A DNA stretch of 48,791 bases, from the NCBI GenBank assembly GCA_001275005.1, contig JWZX01003146.1, positions 1 through 48,791 on the forward strand, given 5' to 3'. This document shows positions 7,761 to 21,081 of this stretch, one piece after another. The notes beneath the pieces were generated by a model. The model worked only from the letters and a program-made list of their open reading frames with translations. It had not been told where the DNA came from and did no database searches. Numbering within the stretch: the stretch's first letter is position 1; each line of letters starts with the position of its first letter. This DNA is from Chrysochromulina tobinii (taxonomy: Eukaryota). Both the position numbers and the translations under genes were made by a program.

Positions 7761-9443
7761 CTATTGCCCTGAGAGCCAGCCGTCAACCGTCGCCTTCTGC
7801 TTGTGAAGCGCATCCATCGTCTTACATGTGCCCTGTGACCTCCGGCGCACCGCTGCGAGCATCGTCTCGCCCACTGCGCCGTGCCCGCGTAGCCTGGCCT
7901 CGAGAGCCGCGAGCCGCGTCGCCAGGCTGATCAACGAGGTGCTATGTGCCGGGAGCAGCTGCATCAGCGTCTCGGCGTGCTCGGCGAGCGCACGAACGGC
8001 GAGGGCGATGAGCGCAGGGGCGGCGCGTTCTTCCCCAGCGAGGGCCTCGAGCGCTTGGCAGCGCAAGGCGCGCGTCTGCACCGCTATCCAGTGTGTGGCT
8101 GCGACCTCCCTCTGGAGTATTCCGAGGGCGCCTTCAGCTGCGCTTCGCGCGTCCTCCCAACTGTCGTACTGCTTCGGCTTGAACCCGACGATCTTGCCAC
8201 GCAGTTTCTGGACGCTGAAGACGCTTGCGTGCGCACGGCGCGCGAGGTTCATGTCACCGTCAAGGTCGTCCAAGAGCTGGTCGACTGGATCGAGCTCCTT
8301 GAGGGCACATGCGCTCGCGGGCTGGGCGCATCGCGAGCAGCCGCATTCAAACCCAAAGAGCGTCGCGAGGAAAGCACGCCGCTCGCTTCGCGGGAGGGTC
8401 GCGAGCTCGTCCTGATAACAGATGGTGAGCTGAGCTCCTGCGGGCACCTCATCGAGGGTGTACACGCGCGCCCGGCCGCTCGCCGCCTCGACTGGCGTCA
8501 ACGTGCAGTTCGGCCAGCACGAGTGGTTCAACATTGAGACTCTCTCGTAGATGAGTCCGATCGGATCCTCGATTCCTTCGATGCGCGTCTGGAAAGCATT
8601 GTTGATGACGGCAGCGTGCGCGGCCATGGCGTCGGCTTCGCTCACCCCCTTCATCTCACGCAGCCACATTGCCGCCGCCTTGGCGTCGTCGCCGCCGTCA
8701 CGGGGCGCCCCCGGCGCAGGACGCAGACCCGTCGCGCGATTGAGCAGCTTCCGAGCAAGGACCAGTGCAGCCATCGTGCCTGCGACGTCGTCGTCCTCGC
8801 TGTGCACTATGTGAGGCCGTTCCGTGAGAACGACGCTGCCGGCGGGGAGGGCGACACGCGCGTACAGGCCGCGCTCGCCGTCGACCTCCCGTTGCTCGAC
8901 GAGTGGAGACAACGCCGCAGTCTCAAGCTCAGCCACCGTGCCGCCCAATGACGGATTGTAGCAATGGTGGGCCGCACGATGTACGAGAATGGCCATTTCG
9001 ACCGCACTGCTGCATGAGGAGGCACCATTGAGGACGACCTGCGCGCAGGAGCCGAGTTGCTTAAGGCGCGCATCCTTGGTGCCGGAGGCAACATCGGCGA
9101 TGGCAGCATGCACCGCCCGCTCCGAGTCGTGCGATACGGGAAAGCGCAGCACGTCCTCGTCTGCTGCCCGGCCAACGTGTGCACAGCGAACACGCGACAA
9201 GAAGCGGCGGATCTCGAGTGGAGAGAGCGGCAGCGAATTGCCAACGCATTCCAGTGCAGCGAGGGCAGCACGGCGTAGGTCTTTCGACGCATCGACGGCG
9301 GCACCGCGGTCTTTGGCTTCATCGACAGACGTGGAGTCCTTGGGTTCATCGACGGTAGCGAAAAAGTCCTTGATGGATCTGCGAAAGACTATTGCCGCTG
9401 CGCCTAGAGCGGCGGCCAGAGTAAGAGCGATGGCCTTCGACAT
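7761..9443 (-). CDS. SET-domain (SMYD-like) lysine methyltransferase with N-terminal hydrophobic anchor
   Basis: RGLYA, NHSCWPN, QLTICY and post-SET FECGCSRC. An in-frame TGA directly precedes the ATG. Confidence 0.85.
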   Translation of the reverse strand: MSKAIALTLAAALGAAAIVFRRSIKDFFATVDEPKDSTSVDEAKDRGAAVDASKDLRRAALAALECVGNSLPLSPLEIRRFLSRVRCAHVGRAADEDVLRFPVSHDSERAVHAAIADVASGTKDARLKQLGSCAQVVLNGASSCSSAVEMAILVHRAAHHCYNPSLGGTVAELETAALSPLVEQREVDGERGLYARVALPAGSVVLTERPHIVHSEDDDVAGTMAALVLARKLLNRATGLRPAPGAPRDGGDDAKAAAMWLREMKGVSEADAMAAHAAVINNAFQTRIEGIEDPIGLIYERVSMLNHSCWPNCTLTPVEAASGRARVYTLDEVPAGAQLTICYQDELATLPRSERRAFLATLFGFECGCSRCAQPASACALKELDPVDQLLDDLDGDMNLARRAHASVFSVQKLRGKIVGFKPKQYDSWEDARSAAEGALGILQREVAATHWIAVQTRALRCQALEALAGEERAAPALIALAVRALAEHAETLMQLLPAHSTSLISLATRLAALEARLRGHGAVGETMLAAVRRRSQGTCKTMDALHKQKATVDGWLSGQ

Positions 9444-9448
9444 TCACG

Positions 9449-9459
9449 TGGCTCCTTTG
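9449..9459 (+). repeat. Target-site duplication, left copy (TGGCTCCTTTG)
   Basis: Identical to 21071-21081. The edge bases overlap the microsatellite, so the true length may be 9-11 bp. Confidence 0.9.
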
Positions 9460-9502
9460 AGTGAGTTGTGAGTGAGTGAGTGAGTGAGTGAGTGAGTGAG
9501 TT
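9459..9502 (+). repeat. 5'-terminal (GAGT)n tract in two runs: GAGTGAGTT + GT(GAGT)8T
   Basis: Read directly from the sequence. It is the reverse complement of the 3' tail unit. Confidence 0.95.
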
Positions 9503-9505
9503 CGA

Positions 9506-12500
9506 ATGTCGGGCGTCTTGCTCGCGTCGGCTCCTCCCCTTACGGTAACTCAGAAAAATAGCGCGCGCGGCGCGACTGGCGCAACGTACGTCCAGGCAGA
9601 CACACACAACCAGGCAGCATCACGACGCCCACGCAAGCCAACGCTGCCCCGCCCGCATGCAGCGGAAAGAAAAAGGGGGGTCCAACAGGTCAACGTCACC
9701 ATGCAGGACTCCATGCGGCTATTGTCTACGGTGACACAGACGGGCGACAAGCAGATCGGCAGCACCACGATGCCCCCGCAAGCCAACGCTGCGGCGCCCG
9801 CATGCAGTGAAGAAGAAAAAGAGGGGCTAGACATCTGCAGACAACACGCCTTTTTGGCAGGGCTCAAAAGACGATGGACAAGAACCACGCGCGCGCATAC
9901 GTCAACGTCACCACAAACCAGGCAGCACACTCCATCGGCAGACTACGCTTCGAGCTCAACAAGCTCGCCGCGCTGGGCAACCCGCAGACAGCCGCACACG
10001 CCATCCGGCTGCTCAAATGGGCAGCAGCGCAGCAGCAGCGACGTCTCGCAAAGAAGATTGCCCAATCTGACGCGCGCGACGTCACAGCACGCGCCGCTGC
10101 ACAAAATGACGATGATCAGAACGATGACGACAAGATTGATTGCGAAAATGAACATGACGATGATTGCGATTACAGCAACGATTGCGACCACCAGCAGCGA
10201 CTGCCCACGCAGCTCAAAGCGTTACCCCGCGCCGGAGCCGAGGCGCGAGCCCGCTGGGCCCTCGCCCGCGCCAGCGGCGCACTGTACAAGAATACGTGCG
10301 GCACGGGCAACGCAGCCGGCACTGCCGAAGCCCTCCGAATTTGGAACCACATCTCCGTCGTCTGCTGCCGAGTCGACTGCCACGCACTCGTCGACCTCAA
10401 GGCGGCACGCCGCCAAGCCCGCGCCCAAGGCAGAGCAAACTTCATCCCTGGAGACGGGTGCGCGGGACCGTTCTGCTCCGCTGATCACCGACGAAACCGC
10501 TTTGCAAACCGGCAGCTCGCCCAAGCCGACCAGATCGACCGCGGAGAAAGACTGCTGGCCCGCTGGCCCACCGACCGAATGGACAAGGAAATCTACGTGT
10601 ACAACAACGAGCACGCGAACACAAGAGCAGCCGAAGCCCGACAAACCGCCAAACGCCCGACTGCCTAATCCCATGAGAGCGATACTGATTGCAGCGACGA
10701 TCATGATGACGACAATGATGACGATGACGATAATGACAACTGCAATCATGATGATAGATTCGAGTACCAAAACTAATGACCCGAGTACCATGACCCGAGT
10801 ACCAAAGACGATGATGAGAGTGAAGAACAACTTGACTGTGATGAGTAGCCTCGACCTCACCACTGACAACGATTCTCCAAAGCCCATCAAGTTGATGAAC
10901 CCATCGGATCTCACGACAATGAAAGAGATGAACCTGATTGCGACGACGATTATGATGATGATGATGATGACAGCAGGTGACAGCGACGGAGCCGAAGGCA
11001 CGAACGGCACCGCGAACGACGGCAACAGCAACGACGCCGGCGACAGCGGAAACAAAGGAGGCGCCGATGGCGACAGCGCCGGCGGCAGCAAGGGCAGCGA
11101 CGGCAGCGGCAACGGCAGCGGCGGCAAAGGCGGCGGCAGCGGCGGCAACCCCGGCGGCAGCGGCGGCAACCCCGGCGGCGGCGGCGACAACCCCGGCGGC
11201 AGCGGCGACAACCCCGGCGGCAGCGGAGACAACCCCGACGACGACGACGAAGCGGATGGCGAAGCCGATGGCGGAGACGAGCCCACCGACGAGAATGCTG
11301 ACAAGGACGACACGAAGGACATCCCAAGACATCGATGGGAAGAGACGTATAGCCCATCATGGACGAACCCACCCACAACGCACGTCGACCAACAAGAAAG
11401 GCAAGCCATGCTAGCTGCGCTGGAGATCCAACGCCTACTTCACGGAGCAGCCGCGCGCGCCCGGCTCCTGGTACGCGCCGACGAACGAGAGCCGAATATA
11501 GACTGGCCACCGAACAATTGCACTGCCGATCAACTCCAAGTACTTGAAGAGACAGCCATCAAGTCCATCTACACGTTCGCGAGCAGCCCTGAGAAGATCA
11601 ACGAGAAAGAGCTGACCACCATCTTGGACTACATCACACGAGCTGAAGAGATACAAGAGATCGACAACATCAACTTATCCTACATCATCACGGAGAATAC
11701 GTCAAACTTCCTGTACCAGTGGATGATACGACACAGCGGCACGTACCCAAGACAACAAGTACGGAAGGGACTCAGGACGCTGGCCGTAAAGGTCGCGGAG
11801 GCGGAGACCAAGGCAGAGCAAGACCGCATCGTCTACGCACGGCTAGCCCAACACGCAGAAGAAGACGGCGAGCACGAGCACAGCTACTACAAGTTGGTCG
11901 CCACCAACGTCAACGGTCGACTACGTCTCAAAGATCGTGAACACCTTCTTCAACAAGACGATGAGACGCTCGATGACGAGGCCGTTCGAGGCGATCAGAC
12001 AATGCAAAGGGAACCCGACTGCGCCCTCTCAACAATCTTAGGCTGGCTGCAAGACCCGACGTCGAACGTAGCGGGCGTGTGGGCCGTCGAGACGCACCTC
12101 AACGACAAGGACGCGGACGAAATCATCGACCACCTGAGCACTTTCCATCCGGCCATCGGCATGCTAGTCTCGATCAAGATCAAAGAGGACTCTAGCGCCG
12201 GGCTTGCTTTTCTGTACCGCGTCGACGTTCTTGAACCCCTCACGCCCCTGCAGCCTCCCTTTGCATTCCACACCGCAGATGGGCATCTACATCCAAAGCC
12301 AGACCGCCTGCCCAAACCTCGACCCGAGAATGACCGACTTGTAAGACACGTATGGCATGGCCGCCTCGCCGATATCAGACTAAAGTGGAGCCGCGACTCG
12401 ACCGAGATGATCACTACGGGCGTCTACGTGCCGCAAGTCAATCGCGAGGCCGACAACATCCTGTGGTTCGAGATGGCTACCCAAGATTGGAGCACGTACA

Positions 12501-15500
12501 ACGCTCTCCGAGGTGCACAGGGCGACTTCAACGCGACGCCACGCTACACAGGGAAGAAGCCCCAGACGGCGCAGAAGCAGGCGAATCAACGGCTCGATCA
12601 ACTCCTAGCGACGACAAAATCCGAGCCGATCGGCGACTTGGCTCAATGGACTCACCAACAACCTGTAGGGACGGCCGGACAAGCACCCGATGCCAGAGGC
12701 GTTACAAGAACCACCATCGACCTCAACGTCATCGGCGAGGCGCTTGCACCGCGCTTGAAGGCCTGCGATGTGATGCCCAAGACGAGCGGCGACAAGAGTT
12801 TTCACAGGTCGGTGGGCTACTACTACAAGGTCAGAGGCCAGGAACCAACGAAGGCACAAGTGGCGCGCCCCAGCACCATCGACAAGATCGGCAAGTCAAA
12901 AAAGGAAATCGAAAGCGAGACGCCAACAGGCTGGAAACTGTGGATCGACCTGATGCCCATCGCCGTGAAAGACGCCGCCTGTCTGCTGAACGGCATAGCG
13001 CCAGGAGAGCACATCAGGCCGGACCTGGTCGCAGCAGCATTCTCAAGGTCGAACCCGGTCACCGCCATCGCCGTATTCAAGTACCACATCATGGAGACTG
13101 CCCTCGACCTTCAACGCGAGAAAGCGGGCAAGGGCATCAAGCAGACGACGAAGACAGAATATCTACGAGGACTCGAAGAAAAATGGATTAAGATGATCTC
13201 GACGGTCAATGCGCTGCCCGAGGACGACAAGAGCTTCGACAAGCATGCGGAGGTCAGGCCGGAGTACGAAGCCTCCTTCAAGATGAGAGAGATACCGAGA
13301 GCGATCGTCAAGCTCCCCGAGCTCAACCTGAACAACAAGGCGCGCAAGGCCCGCGAGATGGCACTCGTCGAGAAGGCCTACAATGCTGCCGTCGAAAAGT
13401 ACTCGAGGCGACTCAACGACGCCACGCTCGACCTGCTCGCAGAGGAGATGGAGGAGCTCTCGGAAAAGACCGAGGCAAGAGGCGGGTTCCAGCACGAGGC
13501 GTGGCGCCTAGCCAAGGAGCACTCGATCGCAGCGCGCACCAAGTCCTTCCAACCGAGGCACGCGTCCGGCATCAACACGCTGCAGCTCGATGAGAGTGCC
13601 AAGAAGGGCGAAAGCCCGACGGTATCGGGCGACAAGTTTCGGGTACTCCTCGCCAACAGATACGCAGCGAAACAGGCCGCGCGCCCCGGCCACCCCGGCC
13701 CATGGCTGCACCTCGCCGACGCCGTGAATCTCTTGCACCCCCAGCACGCAGACATCAGTACTGATTCGTCGGCCGAAGATGGGATTCGCTACGACCACCC
13801 CTCCCTGAAATCCGTGATTGAGACCGGAGCGTGCCCGGCCCGCGCTCAAATCCAGCACGCGACCGAGATTGAGTCCATCATGATTGCCCTCGACCATATG
13901 CAGAGCAGCCTCGAAGCAGATACGCGCAGAACTTTTGAAGCGTTTGATTCGCAGATCAACAGAGTCAAGATGAACATGGCCACTGGCACGGACAAGTTTC
14001 ACGCCTACTTCATCCGCAAAGGAGGAGCGCTGGGAAAGAAGGTGTACAAGTACCTGCTCTCAAGGCTCTACGAAGCTGAGATGATGGACAAGGCAGGCCT
14101 GACCTGGCAGATTGCAATGGCGCTCAAGGCCAAGCGCAACCCGCACACAGTCAAAGGCTACCGCGACATTATGGTCAGCTCGCACGACTGGAAGATCATC
14201 ACGGGATGCATGGGGAGCCAATACCAAAGGTGCGTCGAGCGCCGCCGTCCAAGTGAACAGATCGCCTACGAGAGTGGAACCTCGAGTTCGTGCACTCGGA
14301 TCACACTCGGTCACCGCGCGCGCACGACTTTGGCAATGCACCAAAGAGAAAGGCGAGCTGAGTTTATGTCCGACTTTAGTTCATTCTTCCCGAGCATCAT
14401 CCACAAGGTCGTTTTCGAAGCAGAGCGACGAGTCGGAGCCCAACGGAGTCACACGAGGATGCTTTGGGCAACGCACGCGAGAGTAGTCGCGTCGATCCGC
14501 ACGGCCTCAGGCATGACGCCAACGAGACCAATCAACCGAGGCGTCGGCCAAGGCTGCAAACTGGGCGGCCCCCGATCACTAATCGTCACCCTACCCATCA
14601 TCGAGCTTCAACGGCAATGCGTTCCGGCACAGAAGCTTATCGCCCCCAAAGGATTTGGCAGGCACGGTTGTACAAGTTGGATGAGCGACGACCAAACCTC
14701 CGACCCACCGCCTTTTGACAGTCTTGTACAGCTCGCAATCGATGTCTTCATGCACGGCGCCGAGCTTTGCGCCCAACTCCAAGTAGATCATGAAGCAGAA
14801 GCAGCCGACAAGACGAGCGCGAAGCTCTCGCACTACAAGGACAGAGGCACGGTCTGCACCGACGACGAGACAAACTTTGTGCACGTCATCAAGCAAGCAG
14901 GTCGACTCGCACAGCGACCACTCGCAAGATGCCAAGAGTACAAGCAGATAGGCACAGAGAGCACCCATGGCACCAACTTTAGCGCCATCGTCAAGAGGAC
15001 CACGGACAACATCATCGCTCTGATCACGCACGTCTCCAAGCTCGGCGTCACCAATGCGGAGCACGACATCCGGATGGCCAATTCCATCATCTTTGGGACG
15101 CTCTCTTTCCCAAGCCGAGGTACGCCCTTCCCCGCACGTGACTTGGAGCGAATCTCAACTGCCTGCCGACAGGTGCTTGTCAACCACGGCCATCTCAACA
15201 AGTCCGAGCCGGCCGCGATCAATTTTGCCCCGCGCAGTGCAGGAGGACGCGAACAAGTCGTTCCGCAGGCAGTGGCCGATGCATCGCTCGTCACGCAGAC
15301 CTTGTTGCTCCTCAACAACGCCGATGGAGATCGCGACAAGGCGGCCATCGAGAGCCTCTTCTTCGTCAACGCGTGCGCCTTTGGATGGACGAGCACCATC
15401 GAGGAGCCAAACCCGATCGATTTCGACGTAACCGAGGTACAAGATCTCCTACTCGAGGCGCTGCCGTGGGACGCGTTCCAGCTCGCGTTGATCCGCCTCG

Positions 15501-18500
15501 AACTACGCATCAGCAAAACTACGCGAGACAGCCAGAGCGCATGCTCACTGCGAGCGCACGTGCCTGCAGACGCCATCCCGCCCGAGGAGAAGCTCGTCCA
15601 CTGGAACGAGGCGGACAACTCCAATCTCAGGTCCCCGCGCATCGAGCCCGGTGGCAGGCCACCATTGATGCCCCGATGGCCACGATCCCGGCGATTGTGC
15701 TTCTTAGGGTTGCACAGGTTTGACCAGCTGCTGCTAGGAGTACGACAACCGTTCAAGAGGCCAACGAAGAACGAGCAGTCGAGCCGCGGCGAAGGATTCG
15801 CTCACGACGGCTACAAATACTTGGAGCCCGAAGGACGAGCCCATGGGTGGTACCCGTACTACGCCAACGACCCGACCGTGTCCGACCTGTTCCTGCACGA
15901 CCAAGACTCTCTCTCGGCGATCGACGAAACCACGATGCGCGACTACCACGTCACGGTCCGATTCAAATCGTTCACGACGCTAACCGCAGAGCTTCGAGAA
16001 CGTCACGTGCACCTAGATCAAGAAGACCGGAGAAATCTCTCGGCGCTCTGCGAGATCTTCAAAGCTGCGCACCGCTACGAACAAGGCACGAACGACCTTA
16101 TCGACGCGATCCATGCGTTCGCGCACAAGGCGGCCACAGCGATGCTCGAGAGGGACCAGGAAATGCTCGAGAACATCGCAGAGTTTGCCCAACAGCAAGC
16201 AGGGCAACGACTCGGCGACAAGTTCGTCTTCATCGGCCGCAAGTTACGAGCTCAACGACCGCGCGAGGAAATGTTGGAGCAGATCAGGAAGAGCGAGGAG
16301 GTCACCGAGCACACGGACGAGCACGTCTACGAAACACAGCGTGAGTACAGCGAGCAGCACACGTACGAGTATCTGAGCAGGGAGGCCATCATTGACATCG
16401 CCACCAAGTACGAGAATGCGTGGGAGCATGAGAGGAAGACGTTGCCAAGGGACCTTGTCAAGTACCTCAAAACAGGAAGCCTGCACACTGCCGCCGAGTG
16501 CATCGCCGCGCTCCAGGAATCTGACCTACGCGGTACTCAGGCCCGTTCGTTCGCAGAGCACCTGCAACAGCTGGACGCGAGCGGCACGAGACCTGATCTC
16601 AAGGAACGGCACGGAGCACTTGACGATGAGGCGACCGCAAGAGCGATCATCGCCACTACCGAGGAGCTCATCGGCACGTGGGCGCCGAGCCAGTGGCACG
16701 CGGGAGAATCGCCGGCGGAGACTCAGCTGGTACAAGACCGCACCCGCCTCCAGCGCACATGGCGCCGACCAAGAAGGCAGACGTACGTTCGGGGCGGCAT
16801 TGATGATCGAGGGAAGCACACCCTCTCCCTCGAGCCCTCGAAGCAGGACAAGGCGCACGCTCGACGATTCTTCATGCCTCTCAACCCGTACTCGCACACG
16901 GATTCGTGCTACAGGGCGGTCAACGCATCGGGCGGTCTCCTCTTCAAGAACTCGACGAGCATCTATGACTGCATCAACCCCCAGGTATGCTGCACGCCTC
17001 TCCTTGCCATATTCACCCGCGTACGCAAACTCGAAGACGGCACAGGTATCAAGGTCGTCGACTGGACGGGGGAGGAGATCACGGTCAAGATCCTTGACAA
17101 GGAGAAACTCAAGATGAACGCCGACCAGGACCGCGAACTTCTTCAACGACTCGCTCCAATGGAAGACCAGCGCAAGTACACGGCGGTGTGGTTTGGAGAC
17201 GGCGGGCGGAAGGGCGCTGACGGGGCACTGGACAGGCGCGTCTCTTGGGGCGCTGTCGTCGTATGGAAATCGTGCGGCACGCTGATGCGCAACTACCACC
17301 TTGGCGCGTTGCATCCCGAGTGCGACATCCAACACGGAGAGCTCATGCAGATCTACAAGTCCACGGAGTTTTGCATCGAGCAGCTTCGACAAGGAGAAAC
17401 GGTACGGATGCTGTGCGGCTCTGACTCCCAAACCTGCGCAGATGACGTCGAGGCAGCACGATCGGCACGGAACCACCGAGACTTGCACGACTACGATGCG
17501 AGCATCATGGTCGAGACTATCGTCCACAACATCATGACGATCGAGTCGAAAGGCGGCATCTGGGACCTGTTCCGAGTGCCCGGCCACTCGTACACGCCCA
17601 ACGTCATCGCGGACGCGCTAGCGACGGCAGCCCAAACATGTCAACAGTTCAGCCAGGAGGTCGAGATGAAGACGGACCGGGCTTTCGTCGTGCTCTGCGA
17701 CCGCACGGAAGATCAACCTTTCTGGCTGCAGTACGACAAGGGCGCCAAGATGTTCCGATACCTACGTCTTCGAGGTCAACAACGCAGAGTCGAACGAGAA
17801 CTACGAGAATTCCACGCCAAGCACGCCAAGAATCTCATCGCCCAGACCAAGCAGGATCAGGCCTTCAACCTCATCGAGATCATCAAGATGAGGCTGAAGA
17901 GCTCTTACGGAGTCCCGCTCTCGAGAGCGATGCTCGACCGACGAGCCCTTGCCCTAGCCCAAGAACAACTAGAACACGAACGGATCGAAATGCAGAAGAA
18001 GCTCGACACGATCATCTACCCGATCCTCAACTACGACGCCCTCCCAAGCCTTGGCATCAAGATGGACGCGCCGCGATGGACGACCGCGGTCGAGCAGTTT
18101 GTGGCAGAACCTTGGCTCACGAGATCAGCGACCAGGTTCAACGTGTCGTTCCAATTCGCCAACACCGCCCTCCGCACGGATGCCAGCGTCATCCCGGGCG
18201 TTACGGTGTGCCCCTTGTGCAAAAGAGATGTGAGCCCAACGGTATGGCACTTGATGACCGAGTGCACGCTGAAGACGTGCGAGCTTAACATGCCGCACCT
18301 CCCGCCAAGAGTACCTTTAACGACGACTGCCCAAGACCCAACGTCCACAGACGACGAAGCGACAGCCCCTTCGGCGAAAGTGGCCAGAGGAAGCAACGCG
18401 TACCTGGCCCAGGAGATCTTGTGGACGCTGCGAGAATTCCGACCTGCAGGCGAAGCTTGGCCAACAGACCTGCTGGAGCCGAACGAGAAAAACACCTTCC

Positions 18501-19936
18501 TGAAGGAGTTCAACAGGGCCTGCACGACGCTCGAGCTCTCGTGCCAGAGCCGCCAGCACGATGAGGATCGAGGAGTACCGCCGGTACTGGACAATGACGG
18601 CGAGATCGCCAAGTTTGACACGCTCCGCTTCCTCGCTTGCCACCTACCTCGCGATCCGCTCGCGTCGGTCTTCAAGATGCCCAAGGACGAGGAGGGCAAG
18701 GTGAACAAGAACCAGGCCGAAGAAATGCACGAGAAGAAGAAGACGTTCTTCGAAGTGTGGGAGCGACTACACCAGCTGATAGTCGAGGCCATCAACCAAG
18801 CGAAGGCCAAGTACAACCGCATGAGCGCGGCAAGCCGTGCAGCATCCCGAGAAGACGATCAAGCACCACAATTCCGAGAGACGAACGCCTACCAGATCAA
18901 CGAGACGACGCCAGCACGAGCCGAACGAGCACAAGCACAACGGAGCCATCGAGATGAACGGAATGAAAGGCGGAGCGCTGCCGACCTCCTCGAGCTGAAC
19001 AAGAAGAACGAGATGCAGAAGAAAGGCAACCACTTCAACAAGGTCGTCGCCACGTCCCAGATCGGCCACATGTTACAAGCAAGGATCGACGGGCACGTGA
19101 CGCTCTCGCAGCCCTTCGTGCTACCAGCGAATCTGACTTTTGTCGAACGGACATCGAGATGGACGCGAATGGCTGAACCCACCGGCGCAGGAGAAGAAGA
19201 AGAACACGAAGACGCGATGGAAGTAGACTCAACAAGGAACTCAAGCAGACTATCTTACGATGCAGACGACGATTCGAGCAGACGACAATCCGAAGGGAGC
19301 TCCCTGGTCAGCTCGAGGGCGGTGACGCCGCCACCGAACTCTTGGGGAGCATTGGCAGATGATGACGAGGGCAGCTACAGCGGAATTTACGACGAAGGCA
19401 GTGACATGAGCGGCAAAGGCAAGACCAGTGACGTCCCGGGCGACGATGGCGGCAAAGGCGGCAGCAGCGAGCTTCAAGGCAGCGACGGCGGCAAGGGCGG
19501 CAACAACAGACGAGGGAGCGGCAAGGGCAAAGGCGGCGATAGTGGAACCCATGGCGGTAAGCACGGCGACAGGAGTAGCGGCAGTGGGCTCAGAGGCAGA
19601 GGCGGCGGCAAGGGCAGCAGCAACGAGTTCCGCAACGACGGCGGTGGCAAGGGCGGCAGTGGCAGGCAACACGGCAGCGGCAAAGGCAAGGGCGGCAGCA
19701 AGGAGCTCCACGACAGCGACAGCAGTAAGCACGACGGCAGCGGACTCCACGATGATGGTTCTAGCTCAGCAGGGTCAAAGAGCAGTCACCACAGCGCAAA
19801 GAACGGCAGCAGACGGATGATTAAGAGACAGAAACGTGCAGAACAACGAAGAGAATTGAGCAGCGACAGCCACGCGGCTCAACAATCAGCCGAAGACGCA
19901 AGAGCAGAACAACCGGAGAAGAAGCAGAAGCAATAA
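9506..19936 (+). CDS. Retrotransposon polyprotein: APE endonuclease (~11885-12820), reverse transcriptase (~13970-15255), RNase H (~17180-17630), CCHC knuckle (~18209-18265). True start uncertain, possibly 10673 or ~10952
   Basis: APE: ATNVNG, VETHL, GDFNA, TIDL, SFH. RT: ATGTDKF, GYRDIMV, EQIAY, DFSSFFPSIIH, RGVGQGCKLG, MSDD, YKQIG, APRSAGG. RNase H: WFGDGG, HGEL, SDSQ, VPGH..NVIADALA. Zinc knuckle: CPLC-x8-H-x4-C. The frame is open for 3476 codons. Confidence 0.9.
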   Translation: MSGVLLASAPPLTVTQKNSARGATGATYVQADTHNQAASRRPRKPTLPRPHAAERKRGVQQVNVTMQDSMRLLSTVTQTGDKQIGSTTMPPQANAAAPACSEEEKEGLDICRQHAFLAGLKRRWTRTTRAHTSTSPQTRQHTPSADYASSSTSSPRWATRRQPHTPSGCSNGQQRSSSDVSQRRLPNLTRATSQHAPLHKMTMIRTMTTRLIAKMNMTMIAITATIATTSSDCPRSSKRYPAPEPRREPAGPSPAPAAHCTRIRAARATQPALPKPSEFGTTSPSSAAESTATHSSTSRRHAAKPAPKAEQTSSLETGARDRSAPLITDETALQTGSSPKPTRSTAEKDCWPAGPPTEWTRKSTCTTTSTRTQEQPKPDKPPNARLPNPMRAILIAATIMMTTMMTMTIMTTAIMMIDSSTKTNDPSTMTRVPKTMMRVKNNLTVMSSLDLTTDNDSPKPIKLMNPSDLTTMKEMNLIATTIMMMMMMTAGDSDGAEGTNGTANDGNSNDAGDSGNKGGADGDSAGGSKGSDGSGNGSGGKGGGSGGNPGGSGGNPGGGGDNPGGSGDNPGGSGDNPDDDDEADGEADGGDEPTDENADKDDTKDIPRHRWEETYSPSWTNPPTTHVDQQERQAMLAALEIQRLLHGAAARARLLVRADEREPNIDWPPNNCTADQLQVLEETAIKSIYTFASSPEKINEKELTTILDYITRAEEIQEIDNINLSYIITENTSNFLYQWMIRHSGTYPRQQVRKGLRTLAVKVAEAETKAEQDRIVYARLAQHAEEDGEHEHSYYKLVATNVNGRLRLKDREHLLQQDDETLDDEAVRGDQTMQREPDCALSTILGWLQDPTSNVAGVWAVETHLNDKDADEIIDHLSTFHPAIGMLVSIKIKEDSSAGLAFLYRVDVLEPLTPLQPPFAFHTADGHLHPKPDRLPKPRPENDRLVRHVWHGRLADIRLKWSRDSTEMITTGVYVPQVNREADNILWFEMATQDWSTYNALRGAQGDFNATPRYTGKKPQTAQKQANQRLDQLLATTKSEPIGDLAQWTHQQPVGTAGQAPDARGVTRTTIDLNVIGEALAPRLKACDVMPKTSGDKSFHRSVGYYYKVRGQEPTKAQVARPSTIDKIGKSKKEIESETPTGWKLWIDLMPIAVKDAACLLNGIAPGEHIRPDLVAAAFSRSNPVTAIAVFKYHIMETALDLQREKAGKGIKQTTKTEYLRGLEEKWIKMISTVNALPEDDKSFDKHAEVRPEYEASFKMREIPRAIVKLPELNLNNKARKAREMALVEKAYNAAVEKYSRRLNDATLDLLAEEMEELSEKTEARGGFQHEAWRLAKEHSIAARTKSFQPRHASGINTLQLDESAKKGESPTVSGDKFRVLLANRYAAKQAARPGHPGPWLHLADAVNLLHPQHADISTDSSAEDGIRYDHPSLKSVIETGACPARAQIQHATEIESIMIALDHMQSSLEADTRRTFEAFDSQINRVKMNMATGTDKFHAYFIRKGGALGKKVYKYLLSRLYEAEMMDKAGLTWQIAMALKAKRNPHTVKGYRDIMVSSHDWKIITGCMGSQYQRCVERRRPSEQIAYESGTSSSCTRITLGHRARTTLAMHQRERRAEFMSDFSSFFPSIIHKVVFEAERRVGAQRSHTRMLWATHARVVASIRTASGMTPTRPINRGVGQGCKLGGPRSLIVTLPIIELQRQCVPAQKLIAPKGFGRHGCTSWMSDDQTSDPPPFDSLVQLAIDVFMHGAELCAQLQVDHEAEAADKTSAKLSHYKDRGTVCTDDETNFVHVIKQAGRLAQRPLARCQEYKQIGTESTHGTNFSAIVKRTTDNIIALITHVSKLGVTNAEHDIRMANSIIFGTLSFPSRGTPFPARDLERISTACRQVLVNHGHLNKSEPAAINFAPRSAGGREQVVPQAVADASLVTQTLLLLNNADGDRDKAAIESLFFVNACAFGWTSTIEEPNPIDFDVTEVQDLLLEALPWDAFQLALIRLELRISKTTRDSQSACSLRAHVPADAIPPEEKLVHWNEADNSNLRSPRIEPGGRPPLMPRWPRSRRLCFLGLHRFDQLLLGVRQPFKRPTKNEQSSRGEGFAHDGYKYLEPEGRAHGWYPYYANDPTVSDLFLHDQDSLSAIDETTMRDYHVTVRFKSFTTLTAELRERHVHLDQEDRRNLSALCEIFKAAHRYEQGTNDLIDAIHAFAHKAATAMLERDQEMLENIAEFAQQQAGQRLGDKFVFIGRKLRAQRPREEMLEQIRKSEEVTEHTDEHVYETQREYSEQHTYEYLSREAIIDIATKYENAWEHERKTLPRDLVKYLKTGSLHTAAECIAALQESDLRGTQARSFAEHLQQLDASGTRPDLKERHGALDDEATARAIIATTEELIGTWAPSQWHAGESPAETQLVQDRTRLQRTWRRPRRQTYVRGGIDDRGKHTLSLEPSKQDKAHARRFFMPLNPYSHTDSCYRAVNASGGLLFKNSTSIYDCINPQVCCTPLLAIFTRVRKLEDGTGIKVVDWTGEEITVKILDKEKLKMNADQDRELLQRLAPMEDQRKYTAVWFGDGGRKGADGALDRRVSWGAVVVWKSCGTLMRNYHLGALHPECDIQHGELMQIYKSTEFCIEQLRQGETVRMLCGSDSQTCADDVEAARSARNHRDLHDYDASIMVETIVHNIMTIESKGGIWDLFRVPGHSYTPNVIADALATAAQTCQQFSQEVEMKTDRAFVVLCDRTEDQPFWLQYDKGAKMFRYLRLRGQQRRVERELREFHAKHAKNLIAQTKQDQAFNLIEIIKMRLKSSYGVPLSRAMLDRRALALAQEQLEHERIEMQKKLDTIIYPILNYDALPSLGIKMDAPRWTTAVEQFVAEPWLTRSATRFNVSFQFANTALRTDASVIPGVTVCPLCKRDVSPTVWHLMTECTLKTCELNMPHLPPRVPLTTTAQDPTSTDDEATAPSAKVARGSNAYLAQEILWTLREFRPAGEAWPTDLLEPNEKNTFLKEFNRACTTLELSCQSRQHDEDRGVPPVLDNDGEIAKFDTLRFLACHLPRDPLASVFKMPKDEEGKVNKNQAEEMHEKKKTFFEVWERLHQLIVEAINQAKAKYNRMSAASRAASREDDQAPQFRETNAYQINETTPARAERAQAQRSHRDERNERRSAADLLELNKKNEMQKKGNHFNKVVATSQIGHMLQARIDGHVTLSQPFVLPANLTFVERTSRWTRMAEPTGAGEEEEHEDAMEVDSTRNSSRLSYDADDDSSRRQSEGSSLVSSRAVTPPPNSWGALADDDEGSYSGIYDEGSDMSGKGKTSDVPGDDGGKGGSSELQGSDGGKGGNNRRGSGKGKGGDSGTHGGKHGDRSSGSGLRGRGGGKGSSNEFRNDGGGKGGSGRQHGSGKGKGGSKELHDSDSSKHDGSGLHDDGSSSAGSKSSHHSAKNGSRRMIKRQKRAEQRRELSSDSHAAQQSAEDARAEQPEKKQKQ
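9874..10668 (+). CDS. Candidate ORF1 of the retrotransposon, overlapping the long ORF in another frame
   Basis: Strong C/G-ending codon pattern and a natural-looking protein with an acidic tract and a Cys/His cluster (CCRVDCH...CAGPFCSADH). The long-ORF frame over the same bases reads like an out-of-frame translation (T/M/R-rich). Confidence 0.5.
   Translation: MDKNHARAYVNVTTNQAAHSIGRLRFELNKLAALGNPQTAAHAIRLLKWAAAQQQRRLAKKIAQSDARDVTARAAAQNDDDQNDDDKIDCENEHDDDCDYSNDCDHQQRLPTQLKALPRAGAEARARWALARASGALYKNTCGTGNAAGTAEALRIWNHISVVCCRVDCHALVDLKAARRQARAQGRANFIPGDGCAGPFCSADHRRNRFANRQLAQADQIDRGERLLARWPTDRMDKEIYVYNNEHANTRAAEARQTAKRPTA
11140..11236 (+). repeat. 21-bp coding tandem repeat (GGSG[G/D]NP)n in the retrotransposon
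   Basis: About five ggcggcagcggcg(g/a)caacccc units. Confidence 0.85.
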
Positions 19937-20329
19937 GAATAACCGAACAGGATAATCACAGCTCTGAATAGCCCAACTGCATGATTGAGTTCTGATTGCG
20001 AAACGATTAACAGACCGAGGCCGATTCATTAAGAGATTGAGAGAGCATGATTATGAGACTGAATGCGACTGAGAGAGACTGAAACTGAAAAACCAACCGC
20101 GAACGTGATCGAGAGCCGAGTGATTGAGAATACAAAAACAGACAAAGTGACTAAGCCGATGACTAAGATCCTGAGTACACGCTACGAAGGGACTCACGCC
20201 CATGTGATTCTCTCCGCACAGAAGAGAACAATGGCGGCAAACGAGACAGCGAGGCCCTAGAGAGAGAGTGAGAGCAAGAGTGCGAGAGCGAGAGAGCCCA
20301 CAAGACCGAGATGATGAAGGGCGCAACAT

Positions 20330-21050
20330 ACCGCGATGACACGCGCCGAAGGTCGGTCCTCGACAGGTTTACAGCCCCTTGCGTGGCTCAGCCCTAGCCC
20401 GCTCGGCGCGCTGAGGGACCAACTTCTCGGTGCAAGGAGTAACTCCCGAGCCCGGAAGTTCGAGACCGAGATGCTCATTCTGATCGGCAAGGTGACCACC
20501 AAATCCTGTATCTCTGATGGACACAGCCTTAACGGGCGGTCAAGCACGTGAGGGGGTCGCCGCAAGGCTCCTACTCGTTCACCTGGCTCTTCGGAGCCGG
20601 GGCGGCGACCCCGATCTCTCGGCCGGCGGGCCAATGAAACGCAACCGAACGACAGGGGGTCGACGGGACGGACAGTGAGAGGGGGAGGCCCTAACGGGCC
20701 AAACCAGCGGCTCTCTCACGTCCCGTCGACCAGTCGTATGCCATGTGGGTACACACCCGTGCATACCCGCAAGGGACCCACCCACTGCATGACCGATACA
20801 GCGTCTGTTCCTCCCATGGGGGGGTTGGCAGTTTCGCCGGGCAGTGGTGTGGGGCACGGAGAGAGCATAGCGAGTGAGTGAGTTACACTCACTCAGCATA
20901 GCGACGCCCGAACAGGAATCCGTTGGATTCAAAACACGGCCATGAGTATCGGGTGAGGATACTGCATGTGCTGCTATGGTATACCCTATGAGCCTCAGTA
21001 GGTATATCGACCCGTACCCCGTATTGTTCCACGGTGTGTCTGTGTCTCAA
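20330..21050 (+). ncRNA. Highly structured non-coding 3' region of the retrotransposon RNA; function unknown
   Basis: Perfect stems at 20553-20563/20602-20612 (11 bp) and 20658-20670/20719-20731 (13 bp). cUUCGg hairpin at 20582-20601; GGCCC-UAAC-GGGCC at 20687-20700; CCC-GCAA-GGG at 20766-20775; GAATCC-GTT-GGATTC near 20916-20930. Confidence 0.55.
20864..20904. repeat. Mini inverted-microsatellite insert GTGAGTGAGTTACACTCACTC flanked by the 10-bp direct repeat AGCATAGCGA
   Basis: Direct repeats at 20864-20873 and 20895-20904. The 21-bp core has a (GAGT) arm and an (ACTC) arm. Confidence 0.85.
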
Positions 21051-21051
21051 T

Positions 21052-21070
21052 AACTCACTCACTCACTCAC
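21052..21070 (+). repeat. 3' tail A(ACTC)4AC of the retrotransposon
   Basis: Follows AATAA and directly precedes the right TSD copy. Confidence 0.95.
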
Positions 21071-21081
21071 TGGCTCCTTTG
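21071..21081 (+). repeat. Target-site duplication, right copy (TGGCTCCTTTG)
   Basis: Identical to 9449-9459. Confidence 0.9.

Follow-up and report, generated by a model that had tools for sequence, protein, structure and literature searches.

How non-LTR elements form their 5' junctions and prime the second DNA strand has been described as an open question (PMC11371274, PMC2718515). For R1 and R2, second-strand synthesis is reported to be primed by microhomology or nontemplated bases (PMC2718515). In classical L1 twin priming, as reported, reverse transcription starts from both nicks and microcomplementarity joins the cDNA ends, with the second end priming internally and inverting body sequence (bioRxiv 10.1101/2024.08.27.596794). 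Furthermore, Meyer et al. (2010) described L1 insertions with 5' poly(T) in primate genomes and proposed twin and dual priming to account for them. In the accessible part of that account, 39 loci from 918 candidates were verified, none was full-length, 26/37 were without a normal tail, and there was no internal microhomology (PMC2837659). The initial annotation of our locus had held that L1 twin priming does not give a second copy of the tail, which these 39 loci contradict. In the eel, template slippage on a (UGUAA)n tail has been described for UnaL2 and its SINE and likened to telomerase (PMC1636434). For RTE-related retroposons with microsatellite tails, the first base of the target site duplication (TSD) correlates with the tail repeat (PMC6007223).

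Here, we describe an 11.6-kb LINE, with an APE-like endonuclease and a reverse transcriptase (RT), from a Chrysochromulina-type haptophyte. It lies in a stretch of 48,791 nucleotides that was analyzed as a whole (the window). Its (ACTC)n tail stands at both ends in inverted orientation, likely because the RT primes both 3'-OH ends of the target on (ACUC)n. As in classical L1 twin priming, both nicks would prime the RT and the cDNA ends would join by microcomplementarity; unlike there, the second end appears to take the tail and to stop at its boundary. As in R1 and R2, second-strand synthesis requires that the upstream target end become able to pair with the cDNA end (PMC2718515, PMC11371274), but the bases added here would be a templated repeat of 15 to 88 nt in the majority of insertions. 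In addition, the family has an APE-like endonuclease, and its targets are not sequence specific. The family resembles UnaL2 in its plausibly structured common 3' end, short repeat tail, and nonautonomous partner with a matching 3' end; UnaL2 slippage, however, is described for 3'-junction initiation only, and the accessible text mentions no inverted 5' tract (PMC1636434). The correlation between the first TSD base and the tail repeat is likewise seen here, whereas the available account of RTE-related retroposons reports no 5' inverted tail (PMC6007223). Our literature search, with partly strict phrasing and with Repbase Reports and most subscription journals outside its coverage, identified no family in which an inverted tail is routine; such a family may have been described earlier elsewhere.

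Structure and coding capacity of the element

The initial annotation had read the locus as TSD-(GAGT)n-body-AATA-(ACTC)4AC-TSD, and positions 9449-21081 bear out this architecture (Table 1). Two nucleotides of the window's TSD are common with the tract register and one with the tail register. The window contains 14 occurrences of GAGTGAGT, where 1.44 would be expected (14 copies were reached in 0/100 shuffles), and every one of them falls inside this element. Independent Logan unitigs from three DNA runs enter the tract from both directions, covering about 40 of its letters on the flank side and about 37 on the side of the element, at a depth equal to that of the flanks. Because these unitigs do not bridge the repeat, the exact number of tract units depends on the window's assembly. 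Rejoined across the TSD, the target is without a GAGT array, but no empty allele of the locus, which adjoins a SET gene, was seen.

Table 1. Positions in the window of the features of the element
Feature	Position	Strand	Remarks
5' TSD copy, TGGCTCCTTTG	9449..9459	+	11 bp maximal; its final 2 nt are in the GAGT register too
5' inverted tail tract, GAGTGAGT-T-GT-(GAGT)8-T	9459..9502	+	homologous tracts at 17 other sites
Long uninterrupted ORF, LINE polyprotein	9506..19936	+	frame open from 9500; first ATG 9506; ~3476 aa
Possible ORF1: Cys/His-rich ORF of 264 aa, overlapping in a different frame	9874..10668	+	no Pfam match
APE-like endonuclease region	11897..12800	+	TNVNG, ETHL, GDFN, TIDL by eye; model; fold match
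Non-LTR reverse transcriptase domain	13937..15199	+	YRDI, GVGQG, MSDD
Probable RNase H-like region	17177..17644	+	FGDGG, SDSQ, VPGH by eye; no profile or fold confirmation
C-terminal CCHC-type zinc motif (CPLC...HLMTEC)	18209..18265	+	by eye; no Pfam match
~720-nt 3' region	20331..21052	+	ends in conserved CTCAATA boundary
Tail-only mini-insertion in 3' UTR	20864..20904	.	no element body
Boundary AATA	21049-21052		
3' tail (ACTC)4AC	21053..21070	+	
3' TSD copy	21071..21081	+	

The polyprotein frame contains no stops in 9500-10970, against 13.7 expected; where it overlaps the possible ORF1, 3 versus 4 of 13 variants in 10082-10472 are synonymous in the two frames, a near-equal split that favors neither as the frame under selection. 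Neither the polyprotein itself nor its endonuclease region alone matched Pfam. A fold search with the predicted model gave human L1 ORF2p as the best match (E 2e-26), with R2 next, and the model aligns with EN-containing L1 structures over about 1020 columns, parts of its endonuclease domain having a pLDDT below 50. The four endonuclease motifs in Table 1, picked out by eye, are ones that we take to be those of APE. Of 76 relatives, several carry RVT_1; Exo_endo_phos also occurs in relatives, and the closest long relative is 25 to 32% identical. The RNase H-like region matches P0007 (E 3e-11), and Pfam RNase_H is present in two RT relatives; Pfam and PDB searches with the region were uninformative, and its single-sequence model has a pLDDT of 35.

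The element thus combines a non-LTR-type RT (fold search, relatives with RVT_1) and an APE endonuclease N-terminal to it (model alignment, motifs, relatives) with a variable TSD, a 3' repeat tail, 5'-truncated copies, and no LTRs, as is typical of APE-type LINEs. No long terminal direct repeat was found among the 20 largest repeat families shown for the window. A TIR DNA transposon was considered and rejected: in place of fixed TIRs, a TSD of fixed length, and a transposase, we found end repeats of varying length, many break points, TSDs of 9 to 14 bp, and an RT.

The inverted tract is the family's usual outcome

We scanned for further copies with a search anchored only on the 3'-end motif and blind to the 5' end. 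After five unrelated chance matches had been dropped from 61 loci, 30 distinct insertion sites were labeled by hand; six were without a visible 5' side, and the tract counts rest on the other 24. The loci derive from metagenome records. As a sample they combine cultures with lake populations and favor young copies that retain an exact 19-mer; the counts describe the scanned sites, not the genome as a whole.

The tract was present at 18/24 sites: in all four full-length copies and in 14/20 truncated copies, the latter at about 13 different break points spanning window-equivalent positions 19605 to 21014. Tracts of variable length at many truncation points were what the initial annotation had expected of its proposal, and a single fixed position in full-length copies was what would have spoken against it. 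Because its break points number about 13, the tract does not represent one fixed 5' end. An inverted tail that separates the 5' TSD from the body, the arrangement of twin- or dual-primed L1, stood at all 14 TSD-bearing sites, and the six tract-less sites were all without a TSD (Fisher p=0.0016); in the flanks, the background was 15 of 16,339 positions. The TSDs measured 9 to 14 bp, mostly 10 to 11 (12 exact TSDs), with one of 10 bp carrying one mismatch (L049). They hold no GAGT array, and a paralogous empty target of one site (L045, empty in L022) has one TSD copy and no GAGT, in agreement with the original view that the element did not insert into an existing GAGT microsatellite. No body inversion was seen across the 24 sites. 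Viral contigs held 82 (GAGT)5 loci, none of which was homologous to the family or formed a convergent TSD-flanked pair.

These counts establish the inverted tract as this family's usual outcome, which is new relative to the rare L1 cases. Compared with L1 5' poly(T) as reported (PMC2837659), the tract is common, includes full-length copies, leaves the normal tail in place, and is a tetranucleotide with boundary breaks and internal microhomology; the L1 profile of rare, truncated-only insertions without internal microhomology does not describe this family.

A tail-only insertion

Within the 3' UTR of the window's element, a 10-bp TSD (AGCATAGCGA, at 20864-20873 and 20895-20904) encloses nothing but (GAGT)3-TA-CACTCACTC, with GAGTTA at the end of the tract. 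The empty form is shorter by 31 bp, and the insertion is missing in 21/26 scored loci, the window being among the 26. Logan unitigs contain the joint 20843-20895 of this region.

Junction letters and lengths

Microhomology was similar at both target ends, with means of 1.5 nt between TSD and tract (10/13 scorable sites; null 0.68, p=0.013) and 1.36 nt between tail and TSD (11/13 sites; null 0.65, p=0.018). Between tract and body, scored against the best of several reference copies, it averaged 1.5 to 1.8 nt (13/14 truncated sites; null 0.72, p=0.012-0.05); all of these p values are modest. The initial annotation had both junctions ending in GAGTT. This holds for the window's element, but in most other copies the tract joins the body as GAG, GAGTG, or GAGTGA, and in all four full-length copies it adjoins a similar start, T/TTT-CGAA-ATG.

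A GAGT-T(A) break, whose letters are the complement of the RNA tail boundary, interrupts four tracts (window, L012, L042, and L052), always within 10 nt of the TSD (post hoc p about 0.002); in L052, it is equivalent to one G>T substitution. The 3' tails of L005 and L019/L049 carry the same boundary break at the same distance from their TSDs, and compound breaks (TGT, TAAGT, TAGTGT) also lie near the TSD. Other tract breaks (GATT, GAGC) resemble plain mutations. We had considered GATTGAG breaks as boundary derived and dropped them because a point change explains them (L020 versus L053).

Tracts were longer than tails at 11/13 sites and equal at two (median, 37 versus 18 nt; p=0.001). Their length also differed between assemblies of one site (L019, 37 nt, versus L049, 88 nt; L020, 46 nt, versus L053, 56 nt; and L047 versus L012). 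Later slippage or short-read assembly therefore accounts for part of the excess.

A model for integration and its alternatives

Given the architecture, frequency, TSDs, and junction letters of the family, we consider it probable that both target ends serve the RT as primers on the (ACUC)n tail, that the RT copies this tail repeatedly, and that the upstream tract primes the second strand. An APE-like endonuclease would nick both strands about 10 to 11 nt apart. The downstream end would pair with 0 to 4 nt of the RNA tail, and ordinary target-primed reverse transcription would carry it into the body. The upstream end would likewise start from the tail, either that of the same RNA or that of a second one, where the RT may stall at or just beyond the repeat boundary, realign, and recopy, giving 15 to 88 nt of (GAGT)n. 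The 3' end of this tract could then pair over 1 to 5 nt with the cDNA end wherever synthesis had stopped and prime the second strand; stalling in the tail at both ends would give the tail-only insertion. The tracts at many truncation points support the initial proposal of priming at both ends, the mechanism itself being read from the junctions. The length excess and boundary breaks favor telomerase-like re-copying, an idea that is itself not new, since UnaL2 is known to slip in this way on its repeat at the 3' junction (PMC1636434). The 6/24 tract-less sites count against this model. More tentatively, with slightly less than an even chance in our estimate, normal integration may be symmetric. 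The RT would then behave like a mini-telomerase at the upstream target end, building the second-strand primer there with the (ACUC)n tail as reusable template; a structured 3' RNA would be mobile template and telomerase-RNA-like cofactor at once and could leave tail-only inverted microsatellites in the genome.

It is unlikely, in our view, that a single pass of twin or dual priming seeded only 2 to 5 units and that replication slippage or assembly error later lengthened them. The mechanism proposed for L1, as reported (PMC2837659), would then suffice, and the variation between assemblies, the two sites with equal tract and tail, and the just three units of the tail-only insertion all fit; yet the tails, which are the same microsatellite, are shorter at 11/13 sites, and the compound breaks near the TSD are not simple slippage products. 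We find it still harder to credit an encoded leader, in which transcripts start in a donor (GAGT)n, the cDNA jumps to a 5' (GAGU)n leader that pairs with the tail, and truncated copies are internal deletions. The similar start beside the tract in all four full-length copies and the tract/body microhomology would both follow. However, neither the site-to-site variation of boundary letters near the TSD nor the same break in 3' tails is explained, the tail-only insertion ends GAGTTA whereas leaders end GAGTTC or GAGTTTT, and leaders would shrink every cycle unless refilled by another route.

Snap-back of the cDNA 3' end onto its own (GAGT)n start, with the copied product joined to the upstream target end, would yield the same tract orientation and tract/body microhomology, and junctions of this kind are reported in R2-mediated insertion (PMC11371274). 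It predicts, though, run-on into an inverted TSD, of which none was seen at the 14 direct-TSD sites, as well as boundary letters beside the body instead of the TSD and tracts no longer than tails, and we judge it very improbable. A preexisting microsatellite, healing by host telomerase, and assembly artifact are largely refuted and deserve the least credence. Chimeric contigs do exist, assembled through the common 3' region (L040 and probably L030), and the target of L044 is a tandem repeat, but of a different unit. A preexisting array would be direct, not inverted; the TSDs are unique sequence, with a low background of tracts; several sites are found in more than one assembly; and the two ends are linked by their matching TSDs. 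Haptophyte telomerase, as reported for Pavlova and not Chrysochromulina, makes TTAGGG (PMC3622300), and no TTAGGG arrays were found in the scanned loci. Telomere healing by TERT was rejected, as the unit is the element's own tail and the RT folds closest to L1 ORF2p.

Both-end tailing on the (ACUC)n template would show how such elements start the second DNA strand, and the family offers a readable record of the 5'-junction and second-strand step at most insertions. Because the tail repeat is a tetranucleotide and its boundary is marked, the letters expected at both ends follow from whatever tail is placed in a reporter, a test out of reach with poly(A) elements. If correct, this mechanism would connect LINE RTs naturally with telomerase-type repeat addition and identify one origin of inverted microsatellites; it would also point to a route to defined 5' junctions in retroelement-based gene insertion.

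The 3' region and the nonautonomous partner

The 3' region is common to a 1.3- to 1.4-kb nonautonomous element and many truncated copies. Structure in its RNA is plausible, not proven: RNAalifold paired 57 positions in the 3' 250 nt, five with two-sided change (10 close sequences), and the window's 3' end folds with a z of -1.75. An Rfam search of the 3' region and the partner detected neither a ribozyme nor any known RNA. Like a SINE, the partner has a 3' end in common with the LINE; a pol III-derived head (tRNA, 5S, or 7SL) was not found, with no near-threshold Rfam match in L030 or L014.

RNA contigs from one run (X11) carry no evidential weight here, as contigs cannot show starts, ends, or levels. 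Their word depth is high over most of the 1.3-kb partner, but the last ~200 nt before the tail are left almost uncovered. One of them ends no more than 2 nt from the tract/body boundary, a point beyond which the DNA contig continues for 27 letters.

Family-wide occurrence of the inverted 5' tract

The initial annotation proposed that (GAGT)n repeats are added to both target strands in a telomerase-like manner and predicted such repeats at many different 5' truncation points. We scanned metagenome contigs with a 19-mer that lies 20 to 40 nt before the tail, so that the 5' end played no part in the selection. Of the 61 loci obtained, 5 were unrelated and the other 56 represented 30 insertion sites by flank (hand-curated table); 6 sites had no visible 5' side, and 24 were scored. 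A 5' (GAGT)n tract was present in 18 of these 24 sites, one of which (locus L041) is short and old. As predicted, truncated copies carried the tract (14 of 20), at about 13 break positions between window-equivalent coordinates 19605 and 21014. The full-length copies with a tract were the window's LINE and three copies of a 1.3- to 1.4-kb non-autonomous partner. The tract was present in all 14 sites bearing a target-site duplication (TSD), and the six tract-less sites all lacked a TSD (P = 0.0016; here and below, statistics on sites and junctions come from small samples and are partly post hoc). Later deletions, contig chimerism, or repair insertions may explain these six; chimeric assembly in the shared 3' region does happen (locus L040). 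Four tract-bearing sites lacked a usable TSD, because of a damaged 3' end, a contig edge, a probable chimera, and an uncertain case. Of 16,339 random draws of flank positions, 15 had a tract no more than 80 nt away. The tract is therefore neither a fixed encoded end nor a pre-existing array.

The element at the window locus

Rereading the locus gave the same TSD, 5' tract, and 3' tail as had been described, at both ends (see the table). The string GAGTGAGT occurs 14 times in the window versus 1.44 expected, each time inside the element. In three DNA runs, the element body lies on one contig at a depth equal to that of its flanks, and its last ~750 bp are common to many contigs.

Features of the element and its partner
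Feature	Position	Basis
TSD, 11 bp	9449-9459 and 21071-21081	Sequence reading
5' tract, GAGTGAGT-T-GT-(GAGT)8-T	Between 5' TSD and body	Sequence reading
3' boundary and tail, AATA-(ACTC)4AC	Before 3' TSD	Sequence reading
Non-autonomous partner, 1.3-1.4 kb	L030 (whole), L014, L018:6180-7580 (metagenome loci)	

The insertion lies upstream of a SET-domain gene on the opposite strand (window 7761-9449), 6 bp from its first ATG. The gene, partly covered by RNA contigs, has had its upstream region pushed 11.6 kb away.

A single reading frame runs without interruption from 9500 to 19936. A Pfam scan of this frame gave no match; its reverse transcriptase (RT) region has 76 relatives among 50%-identity representatives, and 16 scanned relatives contained RVT_1 (7/16), Exo_endo_phos (5/16), and RNase_H (2/16). 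The best fold match to a structure model of residues 791 to 1990 (mean pLDDT, 69) was human L1 ORF2p, over ~1020 columns, followed by R2. Putative RNase H and CCHC motifs were read by eye, and a EukProt predicted protein labelled Chrysochromulina matches part of the frame at 100%, so that the host falls within the haptophytes. By the features tested, the element is a LINE, with no clade assigned.

No stop codon interrupts the long frame within 9500-10970 (0 versus 13.7 expected), and a 264-amino-acid Cys/His-rich ORF (9874-10668) overlaps it in a different frame. Doubled depth over 9835-10691, together with a Logan joint of 10691 to 20359 in two runs, suggests a further derivative in which the polyprotein is missing but the overlapping ORF is retained along with the 3' region. 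In the 3' region (20331-21052), sub-families appear mosaic and many hairpins are predicted, with no Rfam match.

Junctions and the tail-only insertion

Microhomology to the repeat register averaged 1.5 nt at the TSD/tract junction versus a null of 0.68 (P = 0.013; 10 of 13 sites scorable) and 1.36 nt versus 0.65 at the tail/TSD junction (P = 0.018; 11 of 13). At the tract/body junction, it was 1.5 to 1.8 nt versus 0.72 (P = 0.012 to 0.05; 13 sites). In 11 of 13 sites, the tract was the longer of the two repeats (median, 37 nt versus 18 nt for the tail), repeat lengths from short reads being unreliable. In four tracts, the break reads GAGT-T or GAGT-TA, complementary to the RNA boundary UAACUC. 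Every such break lies at most 10 nt from the TSD, and the repeat resumes in a different way after each (post hoc P ~ 0.002); one of them also equals a point change. Two 3' tails have a GAGT-T-type break two units from their TSD. Such breaks would be left at either end by an RT that started copying some two units away from the boundary, overran it, and realigned.

A 31-bp insertion in the element's own 3' UTR, absent in 21 of 26 loci scored, reads TSD AGCATAGCGA, (GAGT)3TA, CACTCACTC, TSD and is the family's architecture without a body. It also occurs in a second lineage (locus L048). Empty forms were seen for this mini-insertion and for a paralogue of site L045 only, with none for the window locus.

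Mechanism and alternatives

The occurrence of the tail repeat at both ends is real, family-wide, and directly testable; its architecture, frequency, and junction letters are established. The mechanism that we favor as a whole, and consider likely from these sequences, has both target ends primed on the tail. Nicks would be staggered by 10 to 11 nt; the downstream end would enter ordinary target-primed reverse transcription, and the upstream end would prime on the tail, of the same RNA or a second one, and copy it repeatedly. The tract would then pair with the cDNA end, and the second strand would begin. The LINE behaves as if tail-primed twin or dual priming had become the rule, probably with re-copying.

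Single-pass priming on the tail with later slippage, consistent with tract lengths that differ between assemblies of the same site, is unlikely. We regard as quite unlikely an encoded (GAGU)n leader reached through template jumping, and as very unlikely a cDNA snap-back, a junction type reported in R2-mediated insertions (PMC11371274). A pre-existing repeat, telomerase, or an artefact is scarcely credible; the haptophyte telomere repeat is given as TTAGGG (PMC3622300).

The earlier contrast with L1, that twin priming yields no second copy of the tail, was too strong, since 39 primate L1 loci with 5' poly(T) within the TSD are on record, for which twin-priming variants and dual priming were proposed (Meyer et al. 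2010, PMC2837659). In that report, such loci are rare, never full-length, mostly without a normal tail, and without internal microhomology. The telomerase-like slippage described for UnaL2 differs in being at the 3' junction (PMC1636434), and R1/R2 second strands are described as primed via microhomology or non-templated bases (PMC2718515). A literature search, Repbase excluded, found no family with a routine inverted tail.

The partner and unusual copies

The partner joins a unique head of ~620 nt, which contains CTCTGATG-type repeats as well as a short ORF, to the LINE's 3' ~720 nt. Its start, TTTCGAAATG, resembles the LINE's TCGAATG, and most of it is covered by RNA contigs (one run). At locus L054, LINE coding sequence (19605-19878) is fused to the 3' region at ~20630, with a tract cap and a 10-bp TSD, which shows internal deletion or template switching within a single insertion. 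The copy at L010, which lacks tract and TSD, adjoins on its 5' side an inverted repeat with arms of ~19 nt, perhaps another element that took away the copy's 5' end. Locus L032 has, ~1000 nt upstream and ~3090 nt downstream of the match, an interrupted (CTCA)n array and a decayed GAGT...ACTC pair; these features, located apart from any element body, are possibly older products of the process behind the inverted tails.
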